Positions 23,799 to 43,608 are shown, counted from the first letter of the stretch. The stretch: 64,000 nucleotides of DNA from an uncultured Opitutaceae bacterium (GCA_937889545.1 CALAOT010000073.1:56002-120001), one strand, 5' to 3'. Made by a program: numbers and translations. Notes: generated from the letters alone by a model not told the origin.

Positions 23799-25055
23799 TT
23801 AGGCGACTTCAGTCACAAGTTCGGGATGAAGCAGCTTGTTAACTGCCTCGAGAAGGGCTTCGACCTTGAAGGGCTTGAAGAGAAAGGCTCCGTTGAAACG
23901 GTGCGTCTTGGAGTCGCCACCCCCGCTGGACAACCCGCTCATGGCGAGGATCTTCACCGTGGGATTCAGATGCTGAACGATGTTGGCGAGGACGGAGCCG
24001 TCGAGGTTTGGCATGCTCATGTCCGTTACGACCAGGCTGATCTCGCTGCTGCGGGCGGCAAAGAGCGCCACGGCCTCGGAGCCGTCCCCGGCCATGAGCA
24101 CGCGGAAGCCGTGGCGCGAGAGGATGGCCCCCGTGATGTCGCGGATCTGGGCCTCGTCGTCGACAATCAGGATGAGCTCACCGTTGCCGCGGGCCGCGCT
24201 CGGCCGGACCGGGTCGAGTTGGTCGCCCTTGGCGGGTATCTCGGCGGCGGGCAGGTACACCCGGAACGTGGTGCCCCGGCCGGGTTGGGTCTTCAGGCTG
24301 ATGAAGCCCCGGTGATGCTCCACGATGGCGCGCACGGTCGAAAGGCCGAGCCCGGTGCCCTTGTTTGGGTCCTTGGTCGTGAAGAATGGCTCCCAAATGT
24401 GCGCGAGCGCCTCGGGAGGGATTCCCATGCCGGTATCCTCGACGTGGAGGACGACCCAGGCGCCAGCCATCGCGCCGTCAATCTTCTTTGCGGCTCGCTC
24501 GTCGAGCAGGCAGTTCTCGGCCCTGAGGCTGAGCACGCCTCCGGAGGGCATCGCGTCGCGGGCGTTGACGCAGAGGTTGAGGAGAACCTGGTGAATCTGC
24601 GTCGGGTTTCCCATGACGGACCAGAGGTCGGCCGCAACGTCGCATTCCAGGCGTATGTTCTTGGGGAAGGTCTCGCCGATGACGCCCGTGGTCTCCTTGA
24701 GGAGGGGCTTCACCTCGACGAGCTGGTGGCCGCCGCCCACGCCCTGGGTGAAACTGAGGATCTGGCGCACCAATTCGACGCCCCGCTCGGCGCTCTTCTC
24801 AAGGGAGGAAATGATGCGCAGGTCATCCGGATTGGTCGCGTGCTCGCGGAGCACGGGAGCAGCCAGGATGATGGGGGCCAGGACGTTGTTGAGGTCGTGG
24901 GCGATCCCGGAGGCCAGCATGCCGATGCTTTCCAGCCGCTGCGCCCGGAGAAACTGCTCGTCGAGGCGCCTCTTCGCGGCGACCTCAGGCCCCGCATCCG
25001 GGCGGGCCTTGGTTCGGTCGGAATCGTTGCAGATCAGGGTGGCGCTCATTTCCAT
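23799..25055 (-). CDS. cytoplasmic hybrid histidine kinase (HisKA-HATPase-REC) without a recognisable sensor domain
   Basis: The track ORF runs to 25121. I prefer the ATG at 25055 (MEMSATL). It has the H-box FLRAQRLESIGMLASGIAHDLNNVLAPI, the G-box GTGLGLSTVRAIVEHHRGFISL and the REC domain ELILIVDDEAQIRD...LVVTDMSMPNLDG. Confidence 0.87.
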   Translation of the reverse strand: MEMSATLICNDSDRTKARPDAGPEVAAKRRLDEQFLRAQRLESIGMLASGIAHDLNNVLAPIILAAPVLREHATNPDDLRIISSLEKSAERGVELVRQILSFTQGVGGGHQLVEVKPLLKETTGVIGETFPKNIRLECDVAADLWSVMGNPTQIHQVLLNLCVNARDAMPSGGVLSLRAENCLLDERAAKKIDGAMAGAWVVLHVEDTGMGIPPEALAHIWEPFFTTKDPNKGTGLGLSTVRAIVEHHRGFISLKTQPGRGTTFRVYLPAAEIPAKGDQLDPVRPSAARGNGELILIVDDEAQIRDITGAILSRHGFRVLMAGDGSEAVALFAARSSEISLVVTDMSMPNLDGSVLANIVQHLNPTVKILAMSGLSSGGGDSKTHRFNGAFLFKPFKVEALLEAVNKLLHPELVTEVA

Positions 25056-25230
25056 GGCAGGGAGCTTGCCCCGGTTGAAGCGCCGAGGGGACGCCCGGCA
25101 TCCCCAGAATCGGCCGCGCAAAAGCCATGGGCGTGAGGAGCTTCCCCATCGAAGCGCCCACCCAGAGGTCCTTTAGGGAGGCCGAGTTCTTCCATTTCAG
25201 AGCGCAACCTAGTGGCACTGCTGTGGGTAT

Positions 25231-25258
25231 TCTACGACGATTTCTACGTCTTTTTACG
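25231..25258. promoter_or_regulatory. three phased direct repeats T(C/T)TACG in the divergent kinase/LuxR-regulator promoter region
   Basis: TCTACG is at 25231-36, TCTACG at 25243-48 and TTTACG at 25253-58. The segment is locally AT-rich and ends 85 nt upstream of the GTG at 25343. Confidence 0.35.
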
Positions 25259-25342
25259 TAATCATGAGCCTTTCCCTTGGGCGACAGGTATTTGATGTGA
25301 GCGAGCTTGAGCTCGGTCGGCCAAGCAGTTTACAATGGCGCC

Positions 25343-26005
25343 GTGAAAATTGTAATCGTCGAAGACCACCTGATGATTCGCGATGTCGTGCGGAAGGTCT
25401 GCAGCTCCGAATTTGGCTATACCGTCGTCGGCGAGACGGATTCGGGCGTTCAGGCGGTGGAGATGATTCTGAAGCACAAGCCGGACGCCGTGGTCCTGGA
25501 CCTGTCGCTTCCCGACATGGACGGCTTCAACGTGGCGGACCGCGTGCTCAAGGCCATACCGAGCCTGCGGATCCTGATGCTGTCGTCGCACTGCGACGAC
25601 TACACCTTGTTCCGCGTGGAGAAGTCGGGCGTGCACGGCTTTATCGACAAGAACTCCAACACGATAGAGACCCTGCGGGACGCCCTTTCGGCGATCGCCG
25701 CCGGGCGCATCTATTTCTCGCAGGCGTTCCAGGCGGCCCGGATAGCCCGGCGGTCCGATCCGCGCTCCTTCATCAAGGTGCTGTCGGACTGGGAGCGGGC
25801 GATCCTCTCGCTCATCGGCCAGGGCCTCAATGACGACGAAATCGGCGAGCGCCTCAACCTTTCGCCACGCACGGTCCAGACCCACCGCAGCAACATCCTG
25901 CGCAAGCTCGACCTAAAGGGGACCCCCAAGCTGATCGCCTTCGCCGTCGAGCACGGCTTCACGCAGGTCCAGTCGAAGAGCGGATCGATTCCAGTTTATA
26001 CCTGA
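25343..26005 (+). CDS. NarL/FixJ (LuxR-type HTH) response regulator
   Basis: The track ORF starts at a TTG at 25307. I prefer the GTG at 25343 ([16 protein letters not shown]). It has the REC domain ([12 protein letters not shown]) and the C-terminal Lux[47 protein letters not shown]. Confidence 0.9.
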
Positions 26006-29000
26006 ACGCGGCGAATTCGCGCTCAAAGTCGTCGAAGAGCTGCTGGAGCTTGTCGGGATGGACCGTGGCGGCGCTGTTCTGGAGCTCGAGCGCCTTGCGG
26101 CTCAGCCGCTCGTATTTCACCACGCTGCAGTGCGACAGGAGCCGGTGCGCTATGCGGTGGATCTCCTCGCGCTCGCCCGTGGCGACGATCTTGCGGGCGC
26201 TTTCGCGGTCGCTCTCAAACGCGGCCAGGAACCGGTCGATCTGGCTGTTGAGGCCCTCCAGGGTCTCGTTGCCGAGGAAGCGCAGCATCTCCAGGTCGAT
26301 CTCCGTGGGCTGCTCCAGGGTGATCTTCTGGGAGCGGACCTCGACCGAGGCGGCGGTGCGCATGGGGCCCCCCAGGTCGCGCAACGCGTCCGCAATCTTC
26401 GCCGGGGTGATCGGCTTGGAGATGAACGCATCCATGCCGGCCTGGAGGCAGGCCTCCCTGTTGAAGTCGGCGGAATAGGCGGTGGTGGCGATGATGATGG
26501 TGCGCTGCGTGGATGGCTCGACCGCGCGGTAGCGCGACGCGACCTCCGTGCCGATGAGCCCGGGCAGGCTCCAGTCGAGGAACGCGACGTCGTAGTGGGT
26601 GGCCTTCAGTCGCTCCAGGGCGGCGAGCCCGTCGTTCACGACGTCCGACTGGATGTCGAGCTTGCGCAGCATGGCCTGCATGGCGATGACGTTGTATTCG
26701 ATGTCCTCGACTATCAGCGCGCGAAGCGGCGCTGAGCGGCGGGTGACGGGCGCCTCGGTCGTGCCTGCATCGCGCATGGTGACGAACGGGATCTCCGCCC
26801 AGAAGCAGGAACCCTCGCCGGGCTTGGATTCGACGCCGACCCGTCCCCCCATCTTGCCCGCGAGAAGCTTACAGACGGCGAGGCCGAGCCCCGTGCCTCG
26901 GATGTTGCCGGTCCGGGCCGACTCGAGCCGGGTGAACTTGGTGAAGAGGGTGGCGATCTCCGCCTCGGTCATGCCGGCGCCCTGGTCGCGAACGAAGAAC
27001 CGCACCCGGCCGTGGAAGCCGGGGGAGGCGCCGACCTCGATCGGCTTTCCCGCCCCGAACTTGACAGCGTTGGTGAGGAAGTTGAGCACGATCTGCTGCA
27101 CGCGGGCCGAGTCGCCCACGAGATGCTCCGGCACCCCGGGCGCGATTGAAATGGTGATGCCGGTCCCGTCGGCGTGCGCGTTCATGGTGACCATCGAGAC
27201 GCACTGCTCGAGGAGTACGCGAAGGGAGAACGGCGCGGAGCGCAGCTCCATCTTTCCCGCCTCGATCTTCGAGAAGTCGAGCACGTCGTCGACCAGGGTC
27301 GCCAGCAGGGTGGCACAGCTGTTTATGGAATCCGCCAGGTAGCGCTGGCGCTTGTCGAGCACCGTCTCCTCGAAGGCGAGCGCGAGGCCGAGTATGCCCG
27401 AGATAGGATTGCGTATCTCGTGGCTCATGTTGGCCAGGAACTCGGACTTTGCCTCGTTGGCCTTCTCGAGTTGCTCCGTCTTCTTCCGGACGAGCGCCTC
27501 CAGGCGGACATTCTGCCGGCGCAGGAACGCGAGGCGCCACTGGAAGGCGCCAAAAAAGGCCGCGACCACCAGCAGTCCGAAGCCGACGAGGGCGGGGACG
27601 GTCCTGTACCAGGGGGGCAGGACCGTGAACCTCCAGACCGTGGCCGGGCTCGCAAGGCCGGCGTCGTTGATCACGCGCGCGGCGAACTCGTACCTGCCGA
27701 TCTGGAGCCGGACAAGGTCGAGGTGATTGCTGTTCGTGGGCGCGGACCACTCGCTGCCGCCTCCGGAAAGCATGGTCTGGAAGCGGACGGATTCGCGCCG
27801 GCCAAACTCCGCCGCGGAAAAATCGAAGCTGACGGAATTCTTGGCGGCAGGGATCCTCGCATCCGCCGCCACGCTCGCGCGGAGGAGCGGCGCGCGCGGA
27901 TTGCCGACCGCCTCGAGCTGGCCGGGGGCGAGACGCAGCAGCCCCTCCGTGCCCCCTAGCCAGACGATGCCGCGGGAATCGACGAAGAGAGATTCGACTT
28001 CGCCTACCTGCGCCAAACCCGGGACGGCGAATGGCTCCCAGGAAGCCTCGCTACCGGCCCTGACCGACAATCGGCCTAGGATCGGGATTCTGGGGCCATC
28101 GGTGAAGGGGCCGTCGAACGCCACCCATACTGCGCCCGAGGATTCGCGATTGGAAATCGCGGCAGCTGGCGTCTTTGGAGCATTCTTAATGAGGACGGGT
28201 GCCTTCAGCGCCAACGGATACAGCTCCACCCCCTTGCCGGTAAATACCGCGATTGCATCGTTGATGCGGGCGACCGCCCCGCGCCCGGTGCCGGGCAGGC
28301 CATCGGTCGGCGTGACGCGAATTGGAGCCGTGGAAACGCCGGCGCCCTGGGGTATTTGGAACGCGCCGCGGGAGACGGTGCCGATCCAGATGTTTCCGTC
28401 TCCGTCCTCGGCCAGGGTCTCGGGCTTGTCGGGCAGATGCGCCAGCGCGTTTGCCTCCATTTCTCCTCCGGCAGCTGGGGAGAGCCGCTCGATGTCGAAG
28501 CCGTCGGCCATAAGAAAGCTGCTGGGACTCGCCAGGGATCGGCGGACAAGGAACACGTTCTTTTTTGAGGCGAAAATCTGGGTTGCCCGGCCTGCCTGAA
28601 TCCGATCGACCCGCCCGATGCCGGATGCGAAAATCGAGCCGTCGGGTTCGGACTCAAGGTCGGCATAGCGGGCTGTCAGGTCGGGGAGCGCTGCGAAACG
28701 CGCCGTTCCATCATTGCCTATGGGAAGGCCGAACACGCCCTCTTCGGTGGCCACGAGGATTTGGGATCCGGTCTGGGTCAAGCTGATGCAATGTTTACCG
28801 GTCAATCCTTGCCGCGCGTCGAAAAACGAAACGCCGGATTCGAGCGCGATTCGCGTAATGCCGTCAGCTGAGGTGGCCCACAGCGCGCCGTCGCGGGTAA
28901 CGAAGAGGGAAAACACACCGCGCGACGGCAAACCGTCGTCTGTCGAGATGACCCGTTTCAACGCTCCCGTGGGACCGACAATTGCAATGCCGCCGTTCAG

Positions 29001-29813
29001 CGTGCCGAGGCAAAGGTCTCCGCGCGGAAGCCGACAGGCGCAAAGGAGCACGTTCTTGCGGATGAACTCTTTGGCATCCGGAGCGAACTCGGAGATCTTC
29101 CCGTCGATGAGGCGGAACAGCCCGTTTGTGGTTCCGAGCAGCCAGCCTCCCTCGGCCTTTTCCATCCAGATGACCCCGGCGCTTCTCAGGATTTCCGGCG
29201 AAATGAACTCATGCAGTCCGTCCGCGTCGAGCGTCCGAACCCCCGAATCGGTGCGGCTTATAAAGATCCTTCCGTCCGCCTGCATCGCCTGCACTCGTGC
29301 CGTTCCCGGCGATCCATGGAGCCTGAAGGCCTTTCCGTCCCAGACCAGAACGGCACTTAAGGTTACGAATACGGCTCCTTCGCCGTTGGAAAACACCTTC
29401 CAGACCTCGCCCAAAGCCCTCGCCGCTTCCGGCAGGCTTTCCACAAGTGAATGATAGGCCGAGAGCCCCTGCTCAGTTCGATCAAAATAGCCGATCTCGT
29501 TCACGGCTCCAACCCAGAGACGCCCGTGAGGGCCGAGTGCCAAGGCGCGGACCGCGTAGCTGCCGGGAACGGGGTACCTGTTCCAGCGCTCTCCATCAAA
29601 GGTGAATACCTCGTCGCAGCCAAAATAGAGTATGCCGTTATCATCCTGCGTTGTCGCCCAGGTAAATCCCCCAATCCCCGTGTCCCGCGCTGTGTATCCC
29701 GTCACGATCAGGCGACCCTCCTCGCTTCGGACCGCGGGCGCCAGCGCCACGGCCAACCAGGCTAGGCATAGGACGGGTTTGAATTTTCGCACAGTTTTTA
29801 CGACTGGAAGCAA
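25959..29813 (-). CDS. large hybrid sensor kinase: periplasmic two-component-regulator beta-propeller repeats + Y_Y_Y, TM, HisKA, HATPase, REC, Hpt
   Basis: 1284 aa. It has a signal/TM N-terminus followed by about 700 aa of repeat-rich propeller-like sequence. The TM segment is [19 protein letters not shown], the H-box is [19 protein letters not shown] and the G-box is [18 protein letters not shown]. The REC domain is [12 protein letters not shown]...[10 protein letters not shown] and the Hpt helix is [15 protein letters not shown]. The start codon (TTG at 29813) is uncertain. Confidence 0.9.
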
Positions 29814-29955
29814 TCTGCAGGATAGCCTTCCCTAGCCCTTCCCTTGCAAGCAGAAGCGGCGCCTGACTACTGAAAAAAGCGTAATAAAGAACGTGAAAAT
29901 AGGCGAATTATTAATTCGGTTTCAGGGGCGGGGCGTAAGTAGTTTTGCGTACGAC

Positions 29956-30159
29956 ATGAAGACATTCAATCGCATGGCATTGGGCGTAGCATCCAGCGTG
30001 CTCTTATCAGCAGGCTTTTCCCGGGCGGCCCAACGGCTTGACCCGTTGACTAAGTTGGTTGGACGTTCGAGTTCTGGGGACAGCAGTGGCGAGGCGTCGG
30101 CGTGCTCCTGCGCATGTCAATGCACGATGCCCTGCATGCACGAAGCCAAGTCGGTCTAA
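29956..30159 (+). CDS. candidate RiPP precursor peptide (67 aa): signal-peptide-like leader plus Cys-rich C-terminal core
   Basis: MKTFNRMALGVASSVLLSAGFSRAAQRLDPLTKLVGRSSSGDSSGEASACSCACQCTMPCMHEAKSV. The track ORF begins at a GTG at 29893; the ATG at 29956 is preferred. This is the only ORF in an otherwise non-coding 386-nt gap. It is on the same strand as the YcaO-like gene and ends 40 nt upstream of it. No clear SD sequence is present. Confidence 0.45.
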   Translation: MKTFNRMALGVASSVLLSAGFSRAAQRLDPLTKLVGRSSSGDSSGEASACSCACQCTMPCMHEAKSV

Positions 30160-30199
30160 GAGGCCACGCCGAGAGAGAACTTCGAGAGGCGCCGTCGCT

Positions 30200-31093
30200 A
30201 TGCTTAGCGTCGCTGGATATCGCTATCGAAACGTACTGGAGTCCGAGGGGGGACCCGTTGCGCGGATATCCCTTCGCGAGTTCCCCGTATACGGCTGTCC
30301 GATGTATCAGGCGAATGCCTGGCTGTCGGACAGCCTGGTGTCGCACCAGAGGAATTTTGCCCTCTACAGCGATGCTGACGGCACGGGCGCCTCCGCCGTG
30401 CCGATGGTCGCGCGCCACATGGCGATTTCCGAGGCGATGGAGCGTTGGGCTTTCCGGGTGAAGGTGCGGGCTCCTGACCGGGAGCTGTACGGATTCGATA
30501 TCGACGAGTCGTCCAACGGGATGGCGGCGTTTCCGGGGCTCTTTCATACCGAGGCCCGGAAGCGGGCTCTTCTAGAGGCGGTGGAGCGCGCCAGCGTGAT
30601 CGCCTGGTGGGAGGGCGTGCTGGACGGCGAGGTTCGCAGCACCGACTGGCCGGGCATAAGCGCCCTCGTCCTGCCGAGTCCGATAGGGCTGGGCCTGACC
30701 GTCATCGCGTTTCGAGAGGTGAGGCCGGGCTGCTTCGCCTACGGCCACGGGGCGGCCAAGGACTTCTTCGGCGCGGCCGAGCGTTCGGTCATGGAGCTGG
30801 CGCGCAACGAATACGTGCTCGACCTGCGGCGCGTGTCCCAGGGACTTGCGGCTGAGAAGACGGCGTCGGACCTGTTTGAGCGGCGCTGCCTGTTCTTCTC
30901 GTCCTCGGAGGGGCACGCGATGTTCCAGGAGAGGATCCATCGCAAGATGACAGGGCCGCGCTTCCAGTCGGAGATCATCTGCGACACGGAGATTCCGGGG
31001 CCGTGGTCGGAGTATGCCTCGGTGTGGCGCGTCCTTATACGGCCTGCGACCACCGAGTTTCTGGCCAACACCGAGAGGTATTTCTTCTGGTGA
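30200..31093 (+). CDS. minimal YcaO-domain protein (about 297 aa)
   Basis: Track ORF 30059..31093; I prefer the ATG at 30200, with GAGAGG 10 nt upstream. Three YcaO-type motifs were recognised by eye: DADGTGASAVPMVARHMAISEAMERWAF, ESSNGMAAFPGLFHTEARKRALLEAVERASVIAWWEG and AYGHGAAKDFFGAAERSVMELARNEY. No HMM was run. Confidence 0.72.
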   Translation: MLSVAGYRYRNVLESEGGPVARISLREFPVYGCPMYQANAWLSDSLVSHQRNFALYSDADGTGASAVPMVARHMAISEAMERWAFRVKVRAPDRELYGFDIDESSNGMAAFPGLFHTEARKRALLEAVERASVIAWWEGVLDGEVRSTDWPGISALVLPSPIGLGLTVIAFREVRPGCFAYGHGAAKDFFGAAERSVMELARNEYVLDLRRVSQGLAAEKTASDLFERRCLFFSSSEGHAMFQERIHRKMTGPRFQSEIICDTEIPGPWSEYASVWRVLIRPATTEFLANTERYFFW

Positions 31094-31100
31094 GTGCAGG

Positions 31101-31124
31101 TCCATCCCGGGCTTCCGGGATGGA
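31101..31124 (+). terminator. perfect 10-bp stem / 4-nt loop hairpin 8 nt after the YcaO stop (no U-tract)
   Basis: tccatcccgg-gctt-ccgggatgga, read directly from the sequence. A second inverted repeat, gtgccggc...gccggcac, spans 31139-31180. Confidence 0.35.
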
Positions 31125-31331
31125 TCGGCCTGAATCGCGTGCCGGCTTGGGTGCGCGGTTTTGCGCAAGCGCGCCGGCACGGGGCGGGCGGCGGAGTTTT
31201 CCGAAACGTGACAAGGGCGGGTTGAAATCCGCGCGATTCGGCTTGAGCTGCAGTGCCCGGCAAGTTGGCCGGGAATACCTAGGAACAGTTTTCGGAAAAC
31301 CGCGTCAGAACCGCTAGCACTTGAAGAAGCC

Positions 31332-31556
31332 GTGAAACTCGCCAAGAAGACGACCCAATCGAAGGCCCCCTCCCTGGAGGGGGACCTGCTGCGGCTGGAA
31401 CTGCGGATCGCAAGGCGGGCGGACAGGCTTTGGCGGAAGGCGGGATGCTGCAGCGGCAGGGACCTGATCCACTGGCTGCAGGCGGAGGGCGAGGTGCTCG
31501 AGAGGCATTTCGCCACCGGGCGCCCCATGGGGGCGATGCTGCCCGCGGAGCAATGA
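31332..31556 (+). CDS. DUF2934-family small protein
   Basis: 74 aa with a GTG start. LRLELRIARRADRLWRKAGCCSGRDLIHWLQAEGEVLE fits the DUF2934 pattern (RAYElW...G..G.DledWLqAE). Confidence 0.65.
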   Translation: MKLAKKTTQSKAPSLEGDLLRLELRIARRADRLWRKAGCCSGRDLIHWLQAEGEVLERHFATGRPMGAMLPAEQ

Positions 31557-31718
31557 GGCCCCTCGGGGTCGCTGGTGCCTTGCCTTCGGCGCGCCGGCGC
31601 AGGATAAACACGCGCGGCGGCGAACCGCCCGGGATTGAACGGATCTCGCGCCGGCGCGAAAGGGATGCGGCCCAACCTCCATCAGCTTCCTGTATCCGGA
31701 AACTCCTCCGGCTTCCGC

Positions 31719-34076
31719 ATGCCGGGAGCGGGACGCCCGCGCTGCAACGAGTGGATCCGGCTCGCGCCGGCGCTCATAGCCGCGATGGGCCTGGCCCATG
31801 GCAAAGCCCGGGCGGACCCGGGCGGCCCGGTCGTCGTGGGCGGCGATCTTGTCCGGGTGGAGGCCCAGGTTCGGGAGGGACGGCTGGTCGAGCGCTACCT
31901 GGCCCGCCGCGACGGGGAATGGATCCTGGTCGCCGCAGGTGAGGAAGGCGGCACGATGGGGCCGACCGCAGCGATCTCCGCCGACCATGAGGTCGAGGCG
32001 GGCGCGCTCGCAAGGATAGGGAAGGACGGAGCGGACCTGGTCGAGGAGTTCACGGCGGGCGGGCTGCGCGTGCTCCGGAGGGTGGCCGTCGACGGCGGTG
32101 GGCCGTGGGTCCATGTGACCACGCGGCTCAATCCGGGCCGCCCGGCGAAGCTCCATGCGTTTGTCGACCGGTTCAGATTCCCGCTGGCGCCGGACTGGTC
32201 CTTCGCCCCCTCGGTCCGCGGATTCGTCCCCGACGCGCAGTACAAGGCCCCGCTGATCCTTGTGCAGGCGGGTTGGGTCGCCTTCGGGATCGTCCCGGAC
32301 GTGGCCGGGCTCGACCGCCCGGCGTTGAAGCGGTGCAACCACGCCCTGGACCTGGACGTGCCGGGCGGCCCCGTCCTGAGCGTGGGCTTCGTGCCCGCCC
32401 GCCTCGCATACCATTCCGTCTATGCGCCGGACGAGGCGCGGTCGTGGACGGCGGAGGGCCCTCTCGGGAACGCCTACTACCTTCTGGTCACGGCCGCGGC
32501 CCGGCCCGGCGAGGCCTACCGCGAGGCCGTGCGCCTGCACTGGGCGCGCTTTGGCCGGGCGGGCCAGGCCCTGGCGGCCGCCCAGCAGGCGGCCACGGAC
32601 CCGCATTACCTAGGGCTGGCGCTCTGGGACGACTGGCGCAAGGCGGCCTGGCAGGTGCAGTCGCGGGCGGAATGGCTCACGGTGCCGCTTCCCGGCGGCT
32701 CGACGGGCGGCGGCGTGGCTACGCGCCGCTGGGGGCCGGGTCCCTCGGTGTACCTTTCGGCCTGGTTCAACACCCTGCGGACCTCGTATGGCATGGCCCT
32801 GTACGCGCGCCGGACGGGCGACGGGGAGCTGCTCGGGATGGCGAGGGAAACCGTGGACCTGGCGCTCCAGGCGCAGGGCAGCGGCGGGGCCTTCAAGTGC
32901 ATCGCGGTGCCGGGCGGCCCGGGCGGGGCGACCTTGTGGGCGGCCGGCGACGGAAGCGGGGACAGCACCAAGGAGGGTTTCCTGGGCTACGACATGAGCT
33001 GGACGGCCTACTGGCTCCTCAAGTGGAGGGAGGCCGGGCTGCCGGGCGGCGAGGCCGTCCTGCCGCGCTGCCGCGCCCTGGCCCGGTTCTTCGCGGACAG
33101 GCAGCGCGACGATGGGATGCTGCCCACGCGGTTCCGCGAGGACGGGACCGTGATCGGGGAGCTGTCGGAGACCGTCAAGGCCGAGACCGGCCCGGTCGCG
33201 CTCTTCCTCCTGGAGCTCCACTCCCAGGATCCGGATCCGAGGTGGCTCGCCGCGGCCCTCAAGGGGCTGGATTTCCTCGGGGAAAGCGTGGCGAAGACGC
33301 GCCAGTGGTATGACTTCGAGACGTTCTGGAGCTGCAGCCCGCGCAGGGCCGCCCTCGATCCGCGGACGCGGCAGTGGCCGGCCAACGACCTGGCCCTCGG
33401 GCAGGCAGTGTCCGCGTACCTGGCGGCGTTCCGCGCAACCCGCGACCGCGCCTATCTCGAGCGGGGCGAGCGGCTGCTCGACTACCTGCTGCTCTACCAG
33501 CAGTGCTGGACCAATCCCGTGCTGGAGAACCTGACGGGGCCGGAGATGCTCCTGGGCGGCTTCACGACCCAGAATTCCGATGCCGAATGGTCGGACGCCC
33601 GGCAGAGCCAGGTCGGGAACACCCTGCTGGACTACTACCGTGCGACGGGAAAGGCCGAGTACCTCCAACGGGGGATCGCCGCCCTTCGCGCGCAGTTTCC
33701 GGTGTCCCCGTCCGAGAACTGGGCCCACGAGGGCTACGGCCGCAAGGCCGGCGTGAGCAGCTTCCACTGGGGGACGGGCAGCGGGATGGCCGGGATCGAG
33801 ATGGAGGAGGAGTTCCTGCGCGACGGAGTCGTGGACGTGGCCTCGGGGACCGGGGTGGGGGTCAACGGGCTTGACGTGACGGAATGCTCCGTTTGGGCCG
33901 GCGAGATCCGGCTGCGGGTGGCGAGCCCCTTTGCCTGGCGGCGGGAAGCCGTCCTCGTATTCCGCCGCGCGGAGCCTTCACAGTCCTATCGCGTGGTGGT
34001 GAACGGCGCCGATCTGGGCGTCCGGCTCGGTGCCGACCTGGAAAAGGGCCTTCCCGTGACACCATGCGCGGAATGA
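31719..34076 (+). CDS. large uncharacterised, probably exported protein (helical-repeat / possible alpha-alpha-barrel region)
   Basis: Track ORF 31635..34076 (813 aa, TTG start). The ATG at 31719 gives MPGAGRPRCNEWIRLAPALIAAMGLAHGKARA, which is signal-like. I recognise no family motif. Codon usage and composition look like real coding sequence. Confidence 0.6.
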   Translation: MPGAGRPRCNEWIRLAPALIAAMGLAHGKARADPGGPVVVGGDLVRVEAQVREGRLVERYLARRDGEWILVAAGEEGGTMGPTAAISADHEVEAGALARIGKDGADLVEEFTAGGLRVLRRVAVDGGGPWVHVTTRLNPGRPAKLHAFVDRFRFPLAPDWSFAPSVRGFVPDAQYKAPLILVQAGWVAFGIVPDVAGLDRPALKRCNHALDLDVPGGPVLSVGFVPARLAYHSVYAPDEARSWTAEGPLGNAYYLLVTAAARPGEAYREAVRLHWARFGRAGQALAAAQQAATDPHYLGLALWDDWRKAAWQVQSRAEWLTVPLPGGSTGGGVATRRWGPGPSVYLSAWFNTLRTSYGMALYARRTGDGELLGMARETVDLALQAQGSGGAFKCIAVPGGPGGATLWAAGDGSGDSTKEGFLGYDMSWTAYWLLKWREAGLPGGEAVLPRCRALARFFADRQRDDGMLPTRFREDGTVIGELSETVKAETGPVALFLLELHSQDPDPRWLAAALKGLDFLGESVAKTRQWYDFETFWSCSPRRAALDPRTRQWPANDLALGQAVSAYLAAFRATRDRAYLERGERLLDYLLLYQQCWTNPVLENLTGPEMLLGGFTTQNSDAEWSDARQSQVGNTLLDYYRATGKAEYLQRGIAALRAQFPVSPSENWAHEGYGRKAGVSSFHWGTGSGMAGIEMEEEFLRDGVVDVASGTGVGVNGLDVTECSVWAGEIRLRVASPFAWRREAVLVFRRAEPSQSYRVVVNGADLGVRLGADLEKGLPVTPCAE

Positions 34077-34189: not shown

Positions 34190-37100
34190 ATGAACCCAAG
34201 ACTCCCGATTCCACCTCCCGTTCCCCGCCGCATGCCGATTTCCCGGGTCGCGAATGCAGACGCATCCGATGCCGTCGGCTTCTCGGCCCGCCTGCGGGCC
34301 GCCCGGATGCTGCTCCCGGCGCTCCTGTGCGCCGCCTCGGCAACCGCGGCCGGCGACTTTACGCGCGGAGTCGGCGTCTACCCGGGCGATCCCGCTGCGT
34401 TCCAAGGGCCGACGATGGTCCCGGACGCCGCGGCCTACCGCAACCTCGCGCTGCACCGTCCGGCGACTGCGTCGAGCAACTACGACTACAGCCTGACAGC
34501 CCAGCTAATCACCGACGGGATCATCGACGGCCGGATGCCCCGCTGGCTCGTGGTGTCCTCGAGCGCGGAGGGCATCCTGCCCCGGCACGAGCGGGAGCAC
34601 CTGGTAGACAACTACGCGAGCACGGCAGTCAGCCTTCCGGCCGAGGGAGGATGGGTGCAGATCGAGCAGGCCGGGCGGCTCGACGTGCCCGATGTCGACC
34701 GCATCGAGGTGGTCGCCATGCCTCGCACGCAGGACGCGAAGCCGCAGCGGTGGACGTGCGTGGTCCGTGCCTCCGACGACGCCAGCGCCTGGAGGGAGCT
34801 GGGGCGCGCAGGCGGGGAGGAGAGCCTGGCTTCAAAGGCCTTCTGGATTCCGAAGGTCGTCAAGGCGGCGTTTGACGTGCCGGCGAACGGGAAGGCCCGT
34901 TTCTACCGCGTCCAGATCGACGCGCCCTCCGTGACCGGCTGGAGGGTCGCAAGCGTTGACACCTTCGCCCGGGGGCAGCGGGTGAACCTGGGCGGACCCC
35001 ACGATTTCACGAGCGCCTGGAAGAGCGCGGGCAACGCGGCCGAGTGGGTCCAGGTCGACCTGGGCGCGGTCTGCACCTTCGACCGCGTCGCCCTGCACTG
35101 GATCGAGCGCGCCGCCGCGGGCGCGATCGAGGCCTCCGACGACGGGGCGGGCTGGCGCTCTCTCGCGCCGCTCGTGGCCGCCGCCGACGACTACCGGCTG
35201 GCGAAGCCGGCGAGCGCCCGCTACGTGCGGGTGCGGATGGAGCGTCCCGTCGCGGCCGACGGCTACATCTTGAGCGAGATGGAGGTGTTCGGGCGCGGCG
35301 GCCTCGTGCCCCGTGCCCAGCCCGCCGCGGCTCCGCGTCCCGGCGAGCGCCAGGATCTCGTGCGCGGATCGTGGCGCATCCAGCGTGATTCGCTGGTGAC
35401 GCTGGGCGGCGAGGAGCTCTCCCGGCCCGGCGCGGACTGCCGCGGCTGGCTGCCGGCCACCGTGCCGGGATCGGTGCTGGTGAGCTACTGGAACGCGGGC
35501 GCGCTGCCGGATCCGAACTACGGCGACAACCAGCTGCAGATCTCGGATTCCTTCTTCTACTCGGATTTCTGGTATCGTGACGAGTTCGCGATCGCCGCCC
35601 CGCCTCCCGGCCGGAGGGTCTGGCTCAACTTCGACGGCATCAACTGGAAGGCCGACGTCTACCTCAACGGAACCCGCGTGGGCCGCATCGACGGCGCCTT
35701 CACGCGGGCGAGCTTCGACGTGACGGGCCTCGCCCGCCCCGGGGCGGCCAACGCCCTGGCGGTGCGGATTCACAAGCCGGACACGCCCGGTTCCGTTCGC
35801 GAAAAGACCGCCGACGAGACGGGAAGCAACGGCGGCGCGCTGGGCGCGGACAACCCGACCTTCCACGCCACCGCGGGCTGGGACTGGATCCCCAGCATCC
35901 GCGGCCGCAACATCGGCATCTGGTCCGACGTCTATGTGACCACGACGGGGCCGGTCGTCCTCGAGCACCCCTTTGTCTCCGCCAAACTGCCGCTGCCCGA
36001 CACGGGCAGCGCCGATGTGACGGTGGAGGTGGCGCTGCGCAACACCGAATCCAAACCCGTGAGCGGCGTGCTGAGCGGCCAGTTCGGGGACGTGCATTTC
36101 GAGCAACGCGTCGACGTGCCCGCGGCGGCATCCACCGTCGTGAGGCTCGACCCGTCGACGGTGGCCGGATTGCACCTGATGCACCCCAGGCTTTGGTGGC
36201 CCGCCGGCTACGGAGAGCCGAACCTCTACGACGTCCGCCTTGACTTCGACGCCGCCGGGGTCCGGTCCGATTCGAAGTCATTCCGCGCGGGGGTGAGGCA
36301 GTTCACGTATGCCGAGGAGGGCGGCGCCCTGAAGCTATTCGTCAACGGCCGCAGGTTCATCGGCCGCGGCGGCAACTGGGGGTTCTCGGAATCGAACCTT
36401 CTGTACCGCGACCGTGAATACGAGGCCGCAGTGCGCTACCACCGCGAGATGGGCTTCACGATGATCCGGAACTGGGTCGGCCAGGTCGGCGACGACGCCT
36501 TCTTCGAGGCCTGCGACCGCAACGGCGTCGTGGTCTGGCAGGATTTCTGGCTCGCCAACCCGCTGGATGGTCCGGACCCGGCCGACAACGCCATGTTTCT
36601 GCAGAACGCCGCCGACTTCATCGACCGCATCCGCAACCATCCCTCGGTGGGCCTCTACTGCGGCCGCAACGAGGGGGACCCGCCGCCGGTTCTGAACGCG
36701 GGCCTGCAGAAGCTCGTTGCGTCGCTTCACCCCGGCATCCGCTACATCGCGAACTCGGCCTTCGGGCTCGTCAGCGGGGGAGGGCCCTACCACCTGATGC
36801 CGATCAACTATTACTTTGACCAGCGCGCCACGACCAAGCTCCACAGCGAGCTCGGCATGCCGAACATCGTCACCCTGGACAGTCTGCGGCAGATGATGCC
36901 GGTGGCGGACCAGTGGCCGCAGGGGGCGGTCTGGGGCCTGCACGACTTCACGACCCGCGGCGCTCAGGGGGGAGGCGAGCTGCGAGCGACAATCGAAAAG
37001 TCCTACGGCGGCGCCGCGGACGCCGCGGAGTGGGTGGAACTCGCGCAGTTCACCAATTACGACGGCCATCGCGCGATGTTCGAGGCGCAGAGCAAGCACC

Positions 37101-37876
37101 GCATGGGGGTTCTCATGTGGATGAGCCACCCGTGCTGGCCCTCGTTTGTGTGGCAGACCTACGACTACTACCTCGAGCCGACCGCCGGCTACTTCGGGGC
37201 AAAGAAGGGCAGCGAACCCCTGCACGTCCAGTGGAACCCGCTGGACGGCACGGTCGAAGTCGTGAACTACAGCGGCGGCCACCGCCCCAGCCTCGAGGTC
37301 AGTGCCGCCATCCTGAACATGGACGGCTCGGCGCAGTGGGAGCAGTCCGCGACGATCGACAGCGCCGAGGACACGGTCATGTCGCCCATCACGCTCGCCT
37401 TCCCCGGGGCCGGGCTGTCGCCCATCCACTTTGTGCGCCTGAGGCTCACCGAGGGCGGCAAGACAGTGTCGGAAAACACCTACCTGCGCAGTCTCACGAC
37501 CTACAAAGTCCCCGGATTCTCGTTCGGGCCCTTCCACATCCCCGACTTCCCGGCGTTTGATTTTCACGCGATCCGCGCGCTGCCGAAGGCGCCCGTGCGC
37601 AGCGTCACCGCGGCCGAGCGCCACGGCAGCCAATGGGTCTTGTCGACGGAGCTCGAAAACGCCTCAAAGACCCCGGCGCTGATGGTCCGCCTGAAGGCCG
37701 TGCGCGAGAAGAGCGGCGACCGCATCCTGCCGGCCCTGTACGACGACAACTACATCACGCTGATGCCCGGCGAAAGGCGCCGCCTGCGAACCGAGTTGGA
37801 GGAGGCAGACACGCGGGGCGAACGCCCTCGGATCGTGGTCGAGGGCTTCAATCTCGGCCGAGAAGGCGGGCGGTAG
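34190..37876 (+). CDS. glycoside hydrolase family 2 with N-terminal F5/8 type C (discoidin) module(s)
   Basis: 1228 aa. A signal-like segment, RAARMLLPALLCAASATAAG, follows the N-terminus. Discoidin-like segments are NLALHRPATASSNYDYSLTAQLITDG and WVQVDLGAVCTFDRVALHW...ARYVRVRMERP...ILSEMEVFG. The GH2 core is WLPATVPGSVLVSYWNAGALPDPNYGDN...GFTMIRNWVGQVGDDAFFEACDRNGVVVWQDFWLANP. The exact start is uncertain (34190, 34232 or 34307). Confidence 0.84.
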   Translation: MNPRLPIPPPVPRRMPISRVANADASDAVGFSARLRAARMLLPALLCAASATAAGDFTRGVGVYPGDPAAFQGPTMVPDAAAYRNLALHRPATASSNYDYSLTAQLITDGIIDGRMPRWLVVSSSAEGILPRHEREHLVDNYASTAVSLPAEGGWVQIEQAGRLDVPDVDRIEVVAMPRTQDAKPQRWTCVVRASDDASAWRELGRAGGEESLASKAFWIPKVVKAAFDVPANGKARFYRVQIDAPSVTGWRVASVDTFARGQRVNLGGPHDFTSAWKSAGNAAEWVQVDLGAVCTFDRVALHWIERAAAGAIEASDDGAGWRSLAPLVAAADDYRLAKPASARYVRVRMERPVAADGYILSEMEVFGRGGLVPRAQPAAAPRPGERQDLVRGSWRIQRDSLVTLGGEELSRPGADCRGWLPATVPGSVLVSYWNAGALPDPNYGDNQLQISDSFFYSDFWYRDEFAIAAPPPGRRVWLNFDGINWKADVYLNGTRVGRIDGAFTRASFDVTGLARPGAANALAVRIHKPDTPGSVREKTADETGSNGGALGADNPTFHATAGWDWIPSIRGRNIGIWSDVYVTTTGPVVLEHPFVSAKLPLPDTGSADVTVEVALRNTESKPVSGVLSGQFGDVHFEQRVDVPAAASTVVRLDPSTVAGLHLMHPRLWWPAGYGEPNLYDVRLDFDAAGVRSDSKSFRAGVRQFTYAEEGGALKLFVNGRRFIGRGGNWGFSESNLLYRDREYEAAVRYHREMGFTMIRNWVGQVGDDAFFEACDRNGVVVWQDFWLANPLDGPDPADNAMFLQNAADFIDRIRNHPSVGLYCGRNEGDPPPVLNAGLQKLVASLHPGIRYIANSAFGLVSGGGPYHLMPINYYFDQRATTKLHSELGMPNIVTLDSLRQMMPVADQWPQGAVWGLHDFTTRGAQGGGELRATIEKSYGGAADAAEWVELAQFTNYDGHRAMFEAQSKHRMGVLMWMSHPCWPSFVWQTYDYYLEPTAGYFGAKKGSEPLHVQWNPLDGTVEVVNYSGGHRPSLEVSAAILNMDGSAQWEQSATIDSAEDTVMSPITLAFPGAGLSPIHFVRLRLTEGGKTVSENTYLRSLTTYKVPGFSFGPFHIPDFPAFDFHAIRALPKAPVRSVTAAERHGSQWVLSTELENASKTPALMVRLKAVREKSGDRILPALYDDNYITLMPGERRRLRTELEEADTRGERPRIVVEGFNLGREGGR

Positions 37877-38461: not shown

Positions 38462-38665
38462 ACATGCGAAACATTGCGAGAATCTCCGCGACCGGAACGC
38501 TTCTGGAAAAGGCTGCCTCAATCACGGTTTCACGCACGTTTCCCGGATGGGTCGACGCCGCCGGATACGCGGCCGCCCCCTCGGTCGTCATGCCGCGCGT
38601 TCGCGACAATCTCGTGCTTCGGCTTGTCGCAGGCAGGCGGCAGGAGCGAGCCAAGGACCCCCTCC

Positions 38666-39622
38666 ATGCGACCGGCGCTACTTGAATTCGTTGCCGCGAG
38701 CATGATCCCCGGTCACCAGCCCGTCCTCCTTCGCGAGGTGCTTGGGCTACTTGCACCCGGTGCCGGCGGAAAGTACCTGGACTGCACGTTCGGGGGAGGG
38801 GGGCATTCCCGGGCCATCCTCGAGGCCGCGCGAGACGTCCGGGTCGTGGCGCTCGACCGGGACCCCGGGGCGGCTTCGCGCGGGGAGACGTTGGCCGCCG
38901 AGTTTCCATGTCGTTTGACGCTGATTGACAGTGACTTCGGTAAACTTGGAAGCATCGCGGACTCGGATTTCGACGGCGCCCTCTTCGACTTTGGCCTTTC
39001 CTCGTTCCAGCTTGACGATCCCGACCGCGGCTTCTCATTCCGCGACGACGGCCGTGCGGACATGAGGATGGACCGCCGGGCGGGCGTGCCCGCCGCGCGC
39101 TGGCTCGAGACGGCTACGGAGGAAATGCTGGTTCGGGCCATCCGCGATTTCGGCGAGGAGACCCATTGGCGCCGTGTCGTCCGCGCCCTTGTAGCCGCTA
39201 GAGGCAGCGGCTCGCTCGAGAGGACCGCCTCGCTCGCCGGCGTCATCTGCGGGGCGATACCGGCGCGCGACCGGCGCGCCTCGCGGATCCATCCCGCCAC
39301 GCGCTCCTTCCAGGGGATACGGATCGCGGTAAACGACGAGCTTGGCGCGATCGAGCGCGCGCTGCCGGCTGCGTTCGCCAAGCTCCGGCCGAACGGCGTC
39401 CTGTGCGCGATCAGCTTTCACTCGCTCGAGGACCGCCCTGTGAAGCATTTTTTTCGCCGGATGTGCGGCCAGCCGGAAAGCTCGGACGACGCGACCCCGC
39501 AGGATCTGCGGATTCGCCTTGCCGAGCCGCTCACCCGCCGCCCCGTCACCCCGTCGGACGCCGAGACCGCGGACAATCCCCGCAGCAGGTCGGCCAAGCT
39601 GCGTGCCATAAGGAAATTGTGA
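38666..39622 (+). CDS. rsmH: 16S rRNA (cytosine1402-N4)-methyltransferase
   Basis: The track ORF starts at 38474. Homology starts at HQPVLLREVLGLLAPGAGGKYLDCTFGGGGHSRAILEA, followed by FDFGLSSFQLDDPDRGFSF and ISFHSLEDRPVK. The start is the ATG at 38666 or 38702. Confidence 0.92.
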   Translation: MRPALLEFVAASMIPGHQPVLLREVLGLLAPGAGGKYLDCTFGGGGHSRAILEAARDVRVVALDRDPGAASRGETLAAEFPCRLTLIDSDFGKLGSIADSDFDGALFDFGLSSFQLDDPDRGFSFRDDGRADMRMDRRAGVPAARWLETATEEMLVRAIRDFGEETHWRRVVRALVAARGSGSLERTASLAGVICGAIPARDRRASRIHPATRSFQGIRIAVNDELGAIERALPAAFAKLRPNGVLCAISFHSLEDRPVKHFFRRMCGQPESSDDATPQDLRIRLAEPLTRRPVTPSDAETADNPRSRSAKLRAIRKL

Positions 39623-40020
39623 TGCGCACGGGAAAAAAGGCGGGCGCCGATGCATTTGTGAGCCAGTTCCTGGTTTATGCGCTGGTTGCGATCTGCTGCA
39701 GCGCATCCATCGGCCTGGGCACGGTCTGGATGCGCCACCAGATCTCGGTCGCAGCCAACGCAAACAAGGTCCTCGAGGCCAAGATCGCCGGCCTCGAGCG
39801 TCGCATTGAGGAAACGGACGCCGCCATCTCGGCGGAGCAGGATCCCGCGGTGCTTAACCGGCGCAATTCCGAATGGCGGCTGGGGCTGGTGCAGCCTGGG
39901 GAAACGCAGGTGCGCCGCGTCTCCGAGGACCCGGTCACGCGCCTCGCGGCGCTGCACAACCGCACGCTCTTTGGGGAGCGACCGGCGACCGTGAGCCTGC
40001 GCGTCGCCCTCGTGCGCTGA
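39622..40020 (+). CDS. ftsL: FtsL-like cell division protein (positional call)
   Basis: 132 aa. The ATG overlaps the rsmH stop by 1 nt (TGATG). It has a single N-terminal TM helix (FLVYALVAICCSASIGLGTVW) followed by a coiled-coil-like KVLEAKIAGLERRIEETDAAI. It sits between rsmH and ftsI, as ftsL does in canonical dcw clusters. Confidence 0.6.
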   Translation: MRTGKKAGADAFVSQFLVYALVAICCSASIGLGTVWMRHQISVAANANKVLEAKIAGLERRIEETDAAISAEQDPAVLNRRNSEWRLGLVQPGETQVRRVSEDPVTRLAALHNRTLFGERPATVSLRVALVR

Positions 40021-40036
40021 CGCAAGCTGGAACCCC

Positions 40037-42016: not shown

Positions 42017-42117
42017 TCGGATATCTCGTTCAAGACCATGCGCTGGTGCGCGCATTCCGCAACCGGCCCTTGCACCGGCGCACCGGCGAATACCTTGAGT
42101 TCAACCGCGCTTTCAAA

Positions 42118-43608
42118 ATGGCACCCATACTCTCCGACTACATCAGCGAAGACGAAATCCTCGCCGCAAAGGGAAGGCTGGATTGTCCGATCTCGGGGCT
42201 CGTGATGGACAGCCGGAGGGTCGTCCCCGGAAACCTCTTCTTCGCGCTGCCCGGACGCCGCGCGGACGGGGTCTCGTTCATCGACGAGGCCGTCAGCAGG
42301 GGCGCCTCGGCCGTGGTCGCCCAGAGGATGCCCTCTCATCCGCCGGTCAGGGTAACGTTTGTCCAGGTGGCCGACGCCCGCGCCGTGCTCGCACGCGTCG
42401 CGCAGCGGTACTACAAGTTTCCCGACCGGGACCTTTCGGTGGTCGGCGTCACCGGCACGAACGGGAAGACGACCGTCAGCTACCTCATCCGGCATCTCCT
42501 GAACGGGAGCGAGCGGGTCGGGCTCCTGGGGACGATCAGCTACGATCTCGGGGTGCGGACCGTTCCATCCTTCCGGACGACGCCCGAGTCGATCGACATT
42601 TTCGGGATGCTCGCCCAGATGCGCGACGCCGGATGCCGGCACGCGGTCATGGAGGTGAGCTCCCACGGGATCGCGCAGCAGCGCGTGCTCGGGCTCCGCT
42701 TCGGGGTCGCTGTATTCACAAATCTGACACAGGACCACCTTGATTTTCACGGGACGCTCGAGTCCTATTTCGACGTGAAAACCCGGCTCTTCACGGGAAG
42801 CCTGGGACCCGTGCCGGGCGTGGCCGTCGTCAACCTAGACGACGCCCATGGCGAAAGGCTCGCGGCGAAGATCGCCGCCGAGGTGCCGTCGGCGCGGCTT
42901 GTCACCTTCGGGGAGAATCCGATCGCGGACGTCCGGGCTCAGGACGTCGTCCTGAACTTCAGGGACACGGCGTTCAGGCTGGCGTGGCCGGGGGGGGCGG
43001 CCTCCGTCGCGTCCCCGCTGATCGGGCGCTACAATGTGTCCAACGTGCTCGCGGCGGTCGCGGCGGCGTGGGCCCTCGGGCGCGACCCGGCGGTCTTCAG
43101 CGAGAGGATCCGGATCTTCAAGGGCGTTCCGGGGCGCATGGAGAGGATCGAGGAGGGGCAGGCGTTCAATGTGCTGGTCGACTATGCGCACACCGACGAC
43201 GCGCTGCGAAACGCGCTCGGGATGCTCAGGGCGATCACGCCGGGCCGCCTGCTTGTCGTCTTCGGCTGCGGCGGGAACCGGGACCGGACAAAGCGGCCCC
43301 GGATGGTAAGGGCCGTCCAGGAGGTCGCCGACCACGCGTTCGCCACCGCCGACAATCCTCGCGGGGAGCAGTTGGAGAAGATCTTTGCCGACATGAGGGA
43401 GGGCGTGGTCGACCCGTCGAAGGTCACCTGGGTAGACGACCGCCGGCGCGCCATAAGCCTCGCCCTCGACAGCGCCAGGGCGGGCGACAGCCTGCTGATT
43501 GCGGGCAAGGGCCACGAGGGCTACCAGGAATTTGCCGACACCGTAATCCCGTTCGACGACCGGCAGGTCGTGCGCGAACTGATCGCCGTCAAGACGCTGC
43601 GAAGCTGA
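42118..43608 (+). CDS. murE: UDP-N-acetylmuramoyl-L-alanyl-D-glutamate--2,6-diaminopimelate ligase
   Basis: The track ORF starts at a GTG at 42013 (GTGA overlap with ftsI). The usual MurE N-terminus fits the ATG at 42118 (MAPILSDY...ISGLVMDSRRVVPGNLFFALPG). Also present are the P-loop VVGVTGTNGKTT, and DNPR. Confidence 0.92.
   Translation: MAPILSDYISEDEILAAKGRLDCPISGLVMDSRRVVPGNLFFALPGRRADGVSFIDEAVSRGASAVVAQRMPSHPPVRVTFVQVADARAVLARVAQRYYKFPDRDLSVVGVTGTNGKTTVSYLIRHLLNGSERVGLLGTISYDLGVRTVPSFRTTPESIDIFGMLAQMRDAGCRHAVMEVSSHGIAQQRVLGLRFGVAVFTNLTQDHLDFHGTLESYFDVKTRLFTGSLGPVPGVAVVNLDDAHGERLAAKIAAEVPSARLVTFGENPIADVRAQDVVLNFRDTAFRLAWPGGAASVASPLIGRYNVSNVLAAVAAAWALGRDPAVFSERIRIFKGVPGRMERIEEGQAFNVLVDYAHTDDALRNALGMLRAITPGRLLVVFGCGGNRDRTKRPRMVRAVQEVADHAFATADNPRGEQLEKIFADMREGVVDPSKVTWVDDRRRAISLALDSARAGDSLLIAGKGHEGYQEFADTVIPFDDRQVVRELIAVKTLRS

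Follow-up and report, generated by a model that had tools for sequence, protein, structure and literature searches.

A putative YcaO-associated peptide precursor with Sec-type signal-peptide anatomy in Opitutales

Among peptides that are ribosomally synthesized and then modified after translation (RiPPs), the bufferins and oxazolins are modified by MNIO/DUF692 enzymes and made from precursors with Sec-type signals (PMC11626156, PMC12452194); in bufferins, the signal peptide is dispensable for modification (PMC11626156). Sec export of RiPPs was experimentally established recently, and only for the MNIO-modified bufferins. Apart from the MNIO bufferins and oxazolins, the literature that we searched (subscription-only papers being outside its scope) contains a Sec-type precursor reported for chryseobasin and one suggested for cinnamycin, and no description of a YcaO system with such a precursor or of the Opitutales locus that is the subject of this work. 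This locus lies within 64,000 nucleotides (nt) of DNA from an uncultured Opitutaceae bacterium (GCA_937889545.1, CALAOT010000073.1:56002-120001), a stretch that we call the window. It comprises a gene for a putative precursor peptide of 67 residues, which has a signal-peptide-like leader and a Cys-containing core, and a gene for a minimal YcaO-like enzyme. An earlier note on this DNA had stated that Sec-dependent export is known for MNIO-modified bufferins and is not known for YcaO-modified peptides, with which the literature searched agrees.

Our favored reading, held with moderate confidence, is that the precursor has a predicted Sec signal that doubles as part of the recognition leader, and that it would be modified by the YcaO enzyme in the cytoplasm and exported by Sec. 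Such a system would resemble bufferins and oxazolins. Here too, a small Cys-containing precursor with a Sec-type signal is encoded directly before a cytoplasmic modifying enzyme, no dedicated exporter or protease accompanies them, and heterocycles are probably formed from Cys residues before the peptide leaves for the periplasm.

All the sequence features that the earlier note had listed are found in the 67-residue translation (Table 1). The n-region is basic (K2 and R6) and is followed by an uncharged stretch, M7-S22, corresponding to an h-region of 15-16 residues, and then by S22-R23-A24, the junction falling before A25. Further along come a spacer containing GRSSSGDSSGE (residues 36-46) and five Cys residues at positions 50, 52, 54, 56, and 60. 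The peptide has no match in Pfam, NCBIfam, or PADLOC profile searches. An 88-residue, GTG-initiated version, which had also been put forward, was rejected because an in-frame stop lies no more than 21 codons before the ATG in 49 of 87 distinct upstream regions, which supports the 67-residue form. A 100-residue database gene call (P0121) holds the window peptide at 100% identity behind a longer, nonconserved N-terminal extension. Automatic gene callers seem to overextend this open reading frame (ORF), and pipelines that mine for precursors would then not see the signal peptide.

As far as sequence can tell, the N-terminus is built like a type I (Sec) signal peptide, and this anatomy is kept across homologous loci. 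We applied an explicit rule. It demands an n-region that is net positive and no longer than 10 residues, an uncharged run of 8 residues or more in which the best 10-residue Kyte-Doolittle mean reaches 1.6, and, 1-9 residues past that 10-residue segment, an allowed -3/-1 pair. Of 89 distinct homologous peptides, 86 pass this rule, compared with 7 of 306 ATG-initiated ORFs in the window (at least 40 residues, six frames) and 165 of 5000 shuffles of the peptide (i.e., 2-3%). The earlier note had named homologues devoid of a hydrophobic N-terminus as an observation that would count against a signal peptide, and we found the opposite. The junction consensus reads [A/S/V/T]-[R/K]-A before the junction and A-[Q/E/D]-[R/K/S]-[L/F]-D-P-[L/V/M] after it. 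The segment preceding the junction is 24 residues long in 82/88 peptides, with Ala at position -1 in 67/88, A, S, V, or T at -3 in 74/88, and R or K at -2 in 65/88. The longest uncharged run has a median of 16 residues and is exactly that long in 63/88 peptides, a length usual for h-regions that are cleaved off and rather small for a stretch that spans the membrane. A lipoprotein signal was also considered and was rejected: there is no lipobox Cys, window residues 1-49 contain no Cys at all, and the invariant position is a Gly, followed by F, L, or M.

As for the distribution of the peptide, a protein search with the window sequence returned nine relatives besides the window's own gene call. 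In an alignment of 11 sequences (A1), the N-terminal 31 residues are the most conserved, while C56, P59, and C60 are the only invariant positions of the core. We collected 26 genome loci and 80 metagenome loci encoding YcaO relatives at 31-96% identity, and, in each locus as well as in the window, searched all six frames with a profile of the peptide N-terminus. The outcome was 107 peptides from 98 of the 107 sources, with exactly one in the window. All share the strand of the YcaO gene, which they immediately precede with a single exception; the gap between the two genes has a median of 35 nt (40 nt in the window). The peptide is thus tightly coupled to a cytoplasmic YcaO-like enzyme, in support of the reading given in the earlier note, the co-occurrence on the same strand spanning 38-100% enzyme identity. 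The nine sources with no profile match include six that are short of upstream sequence, two from Bdellovibrionota, and one (L100) in which the peptide is divergent yet signal-like. Where amino acids are identical in the first 30 aligned codons, the codons differ in 61% of cases, and invariant residues use all synonymous codons. Consequently, what is conserved reflects selection on the translated protein, and a conserved DNA or RNA element was rejected as the explanation. The layout is that of RiPP precursors in general: a small gene beside a modifying enzyme, 31 conserved N-terminal residues, and a variable spacer and core. Together, gene, anatomy, conservation, and linkage establish a real gene family, in our reading one of ribosomal peptide precursors specific to the Opitutales (Verrucomicrobiota).

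The earlier note had described a signal peptide in place of a classical RiPP leader. The signal anatomy stands, but "in place of" does not, since the segment is highly constrained and is followed by a conserved RLDP motif. The signal peptide of the hybrid sensor kinase encoded next to the peptide gene served as an internal control, in 67 nonredundant loci (2211 pairs). Ordinary signal peptides evolve freely within physicochemical limits. Mean pairwise identity is 0.48 over the 22 residues before the peptide junction versus 0.14 over the 22 residues before the mature kinase, and is 0.34 over the first 30 residues of the mature kinase itself; the peptide leader scores above the kinase signal peptide in 99.3% of pairs. 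Within these 67 loci, G-15, G-5, and A0 are invariant, D+4 is present in 99% and P+5 in 90%, position +3 is L or F, and R-19, S-12, S-11, L-9, and P+5 each occur in 79-91%. Since this conservation exceeds that of a plain signal peptide and the enzyme has no separate leader-binding partner, the 24-residue N-terminus probably serves both as export signal and as enzyme-recognition leader, the latter together with the RLDP motif.

The enzyme encoded downstream of the peptide is, by its predicted features, a divergent, stand-alone, and minimal YcaO. It scores 29.3 bits against PF02624 (cut-off 25.7, E 7.2e-7), with only profile positions 113-231 of 325 matched, and it belongs to a family of YcaO-like proteins of ~300 residues that comprises 427 clusters at 50% identity with E < 1e-3, or 196 with E < 1e-30. 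In an alignment of 60 sequences, the motifs S77-E78-x2-E81-R82, E126-x2-E129-R130, and E199-x2-R202 are invariant or nearly so. An AlphaFold2 model of the 297-residue protein (predicted local distance difference test score 94.6, predicted template modeling score 0.91) is globular, with no N-terminal hydrophobic segment, and the conserved Glu/Arg motifs map to three long helices (residues 68-88, 117-137, and 189-214). When this model was compared to the PDB using Foldseek, the only significant match was McbD (6gos_D), with E 6.7e-6 and a template modeling score of 0.53 on the query; the YcaO family profile matched no PDB sequence at E up to 1. In McbD, three long helices form the sphere that coordinates adenosine triphosphate (ATP), with Mg-coordinating glutamates and a conserved C-terminal tail that is inserted in the active site (PMC6395948). 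The motifs of the modeled enzyme fit this description of the ATP sphere, the two having been compared by description rather than by residue superposition. We regard the enzyme as divergent and stand-alone because several hallmarks of canonical azoline-forming systems are missing. Its score against TIGR03604 (SagD family) is 16.9 bits, below the cut-off of 219.25; its C-terminus reads ...RYFFW, the family consensus being YFxW or YFxF with no PxPxP tail; and no gene for an E1-like, Ocin-ThiF, or RRE protein, a dehydrogenase, or TfuA is found in the conserved neighborhood or within ~6 kb on either side in the window. Nor is there a DUF692 (MNIO) or DUF2063 protein among the annotated neighbors, the adjoining enzyme being the YcaO. 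A homologue at 75% identity (P0076) is encoded in the complete genome of Opitutus terrae.

In contrast to the N-terminus, the rest of the peptide is variable. The "Cys-rich core" of the earlier note holds for the window peptide, with its five Cys residues, but Cys-richness is confined to the closest relatives: only Cys56 and Cys60 (the CxxPC pattern) are broadly conserved and the extra cysteines are clade-specific. Likewise, the Ser/Gly-rich spacer is present in the window and is not conserved among homologues. Of 88 aligned peptides, 41 have CxxPC, 5 have CxPC, 7 have another CxxxC pattern, and 25 have other Cys patterns, in many cases one lone Cys with an acidic tail after it. A Cys that could act as azoline nucleophile is therefore present in 78/88 cores. 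The mature peptide predicted from these sequences is acidic (median net charge, -3). In six loci (L005, L009, L022, L024, L061, and L086), the core is repeated two or three times within one precursor, as in L022 and L024, where ASRSG stands between the three copies of SSLGCAQLPCYH. Such repetition is characteristic of precursors of modified peptides, which points to a short modified unit and argues against a folded small protein or a metallothionein. Eight loci (L019, L095, L096, L097, L098, L101, L103, and L106) have two tandem leader-bearing peptide genes before the YcaO gene; in such loci, a single-Cys motif (e.g., PGCIFPH) ends the first peptide, and the second is devoid of Cys.

These features suggest the following route. 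A peptide of about 60 residues would be finished before co-translational targeting can occur and would be released into the cytoplasm; being too short for co-translational engagement, it would be exported post-translationally, which would leave a time window for modification. Any such modification is expected to be cytoplasmic because YcaO enzymes use ATP and the mini-YcaO has no export signal. The stand-alone YcaO would use ATP to activate the backbone amide beside the conserved Cys. Since Cys is the one broadly conserved feature of the core, thiazoline is the most likely product, a tentative call to which we give somewhat less than an even chance; formation of a thioamide (independent of TfuA) or of an amidine are possible alternative chemistries. 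The modified, still linear peptide would then pass SecYEG post-translationally. Bufferins show that RiPPs bearing heterocycles can travel through Sec (PMC11626156), which makes small heterocycles compatible with SecY. Signal peptidase I would cut after S-R-A (A24), releasing into the periplasm a peptide of about 43 residues with AQRLDPL at its N-terminus.

A possible role for this product is suggested by the neighborhood, which we examined in the genome loci by comparing, all against all, the ORFs lying up to about 6 kb from the YcaO gene. Besides peptide and YcaO, the only other conserved neighbors are a hybrid sensor kinase and a LuxR-type regulator, a fixed association that the earlier note had overlooked. 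A homologue of the extracytoplasmic region of the kinase is encoded upstream, on the opposite strand, in 68 of the 70 loci whose upstream sequence exceeds 1.5 kb (the other two are from Bdellovibrionota), and the LuxR/GerE regulator occupies the same relative position in 15 genome loci. Conserved genes for a protease or a transporter are absent from the roughly 6 kb that flank the YcaO gene on either side, in agreement with the earlier statement that the locus has no dedicated protease or ATP-binding cassette (ABC) exporter. Because the kinase link recurs across loci, it suggests a signaling role. The periplasmic peptide would probably act with the hybrid kinase and the LuxR-type regulator, as ligand or as controlled output, while an interaction between the mature peptide and the propeller domain of the kinase is speculative. 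A more specific proposal would combine the dual signal and leader with an exported, heterocycle-containing peptide starting at AxRLDPL, which would be the periplasmic ligand of the beta-propeller hybrid kinase in an autocrine or quorum-type RiPP circuit of a diderm; we consider it unlikely as a whole. If it were true, kinase, regulator, peptide, and mini-YcaO would form a self-contained signaling module, of which the Bdellovibrionota loci would represent another version, combining YcaO and kinase with a gene for a protein resembling peptide-binding proteins.

Several points weigh against modification of the peptide and its export by Sec. In 19/88 peptides, position -1 is occupied by a residue other than A, S, or G, and the support for a signal peptide comes from an explicit rule on sequence rather than from a trained predictor. 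The high conservation of the leader is atypical of a plain signal peptide and could mean that the segment serves solely as a leader or forms a membrane helix. Export would carry the RLDP motif along on the product, where a leader element is not usually found. Cys is missing altogether from 10 of 88 peptides, and in seven cases the peptide concerned is the second of a two-peptide locus. Finally, the PxPxP tail and the azoline partner proteins are absent and no solved YcaO was matched by sequence, so that activity and catalytic competence of the enzyme are predictions.

If the segment were a membrane helix, the peptide would be an uncleaved signal-anchor protein, a single-pass membrane peptide whose YcaO-modified periplasmic Cys tail regulates the hybrid kinase, much as MgrB acts on PhoQ. 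The near-constant presence of the kinase fits this, as does the conservation of the helix, in which invariant or small residues (G-15, S-12, S-11, and G-5) are spaced as for helix-helix packing. The combination of an N-terminal hydrophobic segment with a C-terminal extracytoplasmic Cys motif also resembles MgrB. However, the uncharged run of 16 residues, bracketed by R-19 and by R/K at -2, is short for a stable span, and the canonical A-x-A site followed by Ala is kept in most members, which makes an anchor quite unlikely. If, instead, the N-terminus were nothing but a hydrophobic RiPP leader, its likeness to a signal would be incidental and the product would stay in the cytoplasm or leave via an unlinked transporter. 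A sequence-specific conservation far above that of the control signal peptide is what such a leader would show, and a YcaO with no separate leader-binding partner must recognize the peptide itself. Yet, the n/h/c layout and the -3/-1 pattern are kept in nearly all peptides and the length is fixed at 24 residues, a free, hydrophobic, and basic N-terminus would presumably be a Sec substrate anyway, and there is no conserved transporter or protease nearby; we therefore judge a pure leader improbable.

The chances are poorer still for an unmodified secreted Cys peptide that binds metal or bears a disulfide, the YcaO acting elsewhere. The five Cys residues of the window clade are in its favor, the CxxxC pair could form a disulfide or bind metal, and the peptide is a putative substrate of the YcaO. 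Nevertheless, same-strand pairing with the YcaO gene at a short gap extends over the whole range of enzyme identity, some members have no Cys, and repeated short cores are typical of modified peptides. The metallothionein-like version of this idea, raised in the earlier note, loses weight because conservation extends to no more than one or two Cys, the extra ones being clade-specific, and because the link to YcaO is obligate. Export by the twin-arginine translocation (Tat) pathway instead of Sec, to which a moderately hydrophobic, Gly/Ser-rich h-region, the basic c-region residue at -2, and a T-R-R-F sequence in a few members might point, is most improbable and was rejected as a family property, twin arginine occurring in only 3/88 peptides, KR in 17/88, and N-R in the window peptide.

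Should the dual signal and leader, cytoplasmic modification, and Sec export prove true, YcaO would be a second, unrelated enzyme class on the Sec route, which would suggest that this route is a recurring solution for modified periplasmic peptides in diderms, and genome-mining tools that discard signal-peptide-bearing ORFs as precursors would miss whole families. With an enzyme of 297 residues and a peptide of about 60, the system is compact, which suits studies of substrate recognition by a partner-free YcaO and of the competition in timing between modification and export. Its fixed link to a large hybrid sensor kinase raises a possible signaling role for a YcaO product.

Table 1. Positions of the precursor gene, its parts, and associated features, counted from the first letter of the window
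Feature	Position	Strand	Basis or remark
Precursor peptide gene	29956..30159	+	ATG-to-TAA ORF, 67 residues plus stop; translation MKTFNRMALGVASSVLLSAGFSRAAQRLDPLTKLVGRSSSGDSSGEASACSCACQCTMPCMHEAKSV
Signal-peptide-like leader, residues 1-24, MKTFNRMALGVASSVLLSAGFSRA	29956..30027	+	Rule-based signal-peptide test passed
Conserved post-junction motif, A25-Q-R-L-D-P-L31	30028..30048	+	Conservation among homologous loci
Variable spacer, T32-A49, Ser/Gly-rich in the window	30049..30102	+	Sequence and length vary among homologues
Cys-containing core, C50-V67, with conserved element C56-T-M-P-C60	30103..30156	+	Alignment A1
Minimal YcaO-like enzyme, 297 residues	30200..31093	+	Pfam PF02624
Divergent hybrid sensor histidine kinase	25959..29813	-	Pfam: Reg_prop propeller region, HisKA, HATPase, REC, Hpt; exact start codon uncertain
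LuxR/GerE-type response regulator	25307..26005	+	Pfam domains
Upstream DNA motif, CTACTGAAAAAAGCGTA	29867..29883	+	89 nt before the precursor ATG
Second kinase gene	23799-25121	-	HisKA, HATPase, REC domains

The DNA upstream of the precursor gene holds a motif of the form [C/T]TAC-N1-2-RRAAW-N2-4-GTA, which is present between -106 and -64 in 54 of 79 distinct upstream regions against a background of 0.0085 per 150 nt. Its only other copy in the window (25245-25261, minus strand) lies about 125 nt upstream of the second kinase gene, and the motif may be a shared promoter or regulator site. A perfect palindrome, GAATTA-T-TAATTC (29905-29917), is located between this motif and the precursor start; it is partly conserved in relatives and may be a candidate site for the LuxR-type regulator. 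A sigma-70 promoter scan of positions 29700-31800 found nothing.

The context of more distant short-YcaO relatives was examined in six loci, two from the genome scan (L025 and L026) and four from look-ups (L107-L110). In L108 and L110, kinase, peptide, and YcaO are arranged as in the window. The Bdellovibrionota loci L107, L109, L025, and L026, with about 31-38% YcaO identity, have no small peptide; there, a larger gene ends just before the YcaO start or overlaps it. This gene encodes an SBP_bac_5 (peptide-binding) protein in L107, whose C-terminal sequence is shared by L109 and L026, and a histidine kinase lies alongside in L107 and L109.

Downstream of the YcaO gene in the window are genes for a DUF2934 protein, a secreted 813-residue protein, and a GH2 glycosidase, none of which are conserved partners. 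The first is a small ORF (31332-31556, plus strand; DUF2934 match E 1.4e-9) that is conserved only in the closest relatives and is probably unrelated. The second (31635-34076, plus strand) has a weak match to the C-terminus of glucuronyl C5-epimerase and an apparent internal signal-peptide start. The third (34190-37876, plus strand) encodes a 1228-residue GH2-family protein with F5/8 type C and exo-glucosaminidase Ig domains. The last two are polysaccharide-degradation genes outside the conserved module. Further downstream, at about 38474-46119 on the plus strand, the ORF translations resemble, by eye, a cell-division and cell-wall (dcw) cluster in the order mraW, ftsL-like, ftsI, murE, murF, mraY.

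Compared with known systems, the closest solved relative by enzyme is McbD of the microcin B17 synthetase, although the partner proteins and tail motif of that system are absent here. Both enzymes have three long helices with conserved acidic residues and a conserved C-terminal tail, and Cys residues are found in the substrate core here as in microcin B17 and linear azol(in)e peptides. However, McbD has 396 residues versus 297 here, the E1-like McbB and the dehydrogenase McbC have no counterpart, and the C-terminus is YFxW rather than Pro-rich as in McbD-type cyclodehydratases. Unlike the peptide described here, microcin B17 has a nonsecretory leader, the TldD/E protease, and an ABC exporter.

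Stand-alone action offers a second parallel. As reportedly described by Schwalen et al. in 2017, the bottromycin stand-alone YcaOs act with no E1-like or RRE partner and recognize their peptide directly, and the enzyme studied here likewise has neither partner. Bottromycin precursors have a C-terminal follower and no signal peptide, and the enzymes are larger and encoded in a multienzyme cluster; here, in contrast, the precursor bears a signal, the enzyme is smaller, and there is no such cluster. With respect to signaling, the arrangement recalls the nisin NisRK and staphylococcal agr circuits, in which a ribosomal, modified, and exported peptide is also encoded beside a sensor kinase and a regulator. 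Those are Gram-positive systems with dedicated exporters and proteases and with membrane-embedded or small sensor domains, whereas export here would be by Sec into the periplasm, the sensor is a large beta-propeller hybrid kinase, and we infer peptide sensing from the gene arrangement. MgrB, which is uncleaved, not enzymatically modified, and tied to a sensor kinase, shares with the present peptide a length of about 50-60 residues, an N-terminal hydrophobic segment, conserved periplasmic cysteines, and the kinase tie. It differs in that the hydrophobic run is shorter here and is followed by an A-x-A site, and in the obligately linked YcaO.

Finally, bufferins and oxazolins rely on an iron-dependent MNIO with a DUF2063/RRE partner and are linked to copper-stress genes, while the enzyme here is an ATP-dependent YcaO with no such partner and the link is to a hybrid kinase. 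The peptide is also shorter, with a short, unstructured, and sometimes repeated core, and its signal segment is strongly conserved, in contrast to the dispensable signal of bufferins. Membership of that family thus fails on enzyme class, and the bufferin/oxazolin group is the closest analogue by mode of action.

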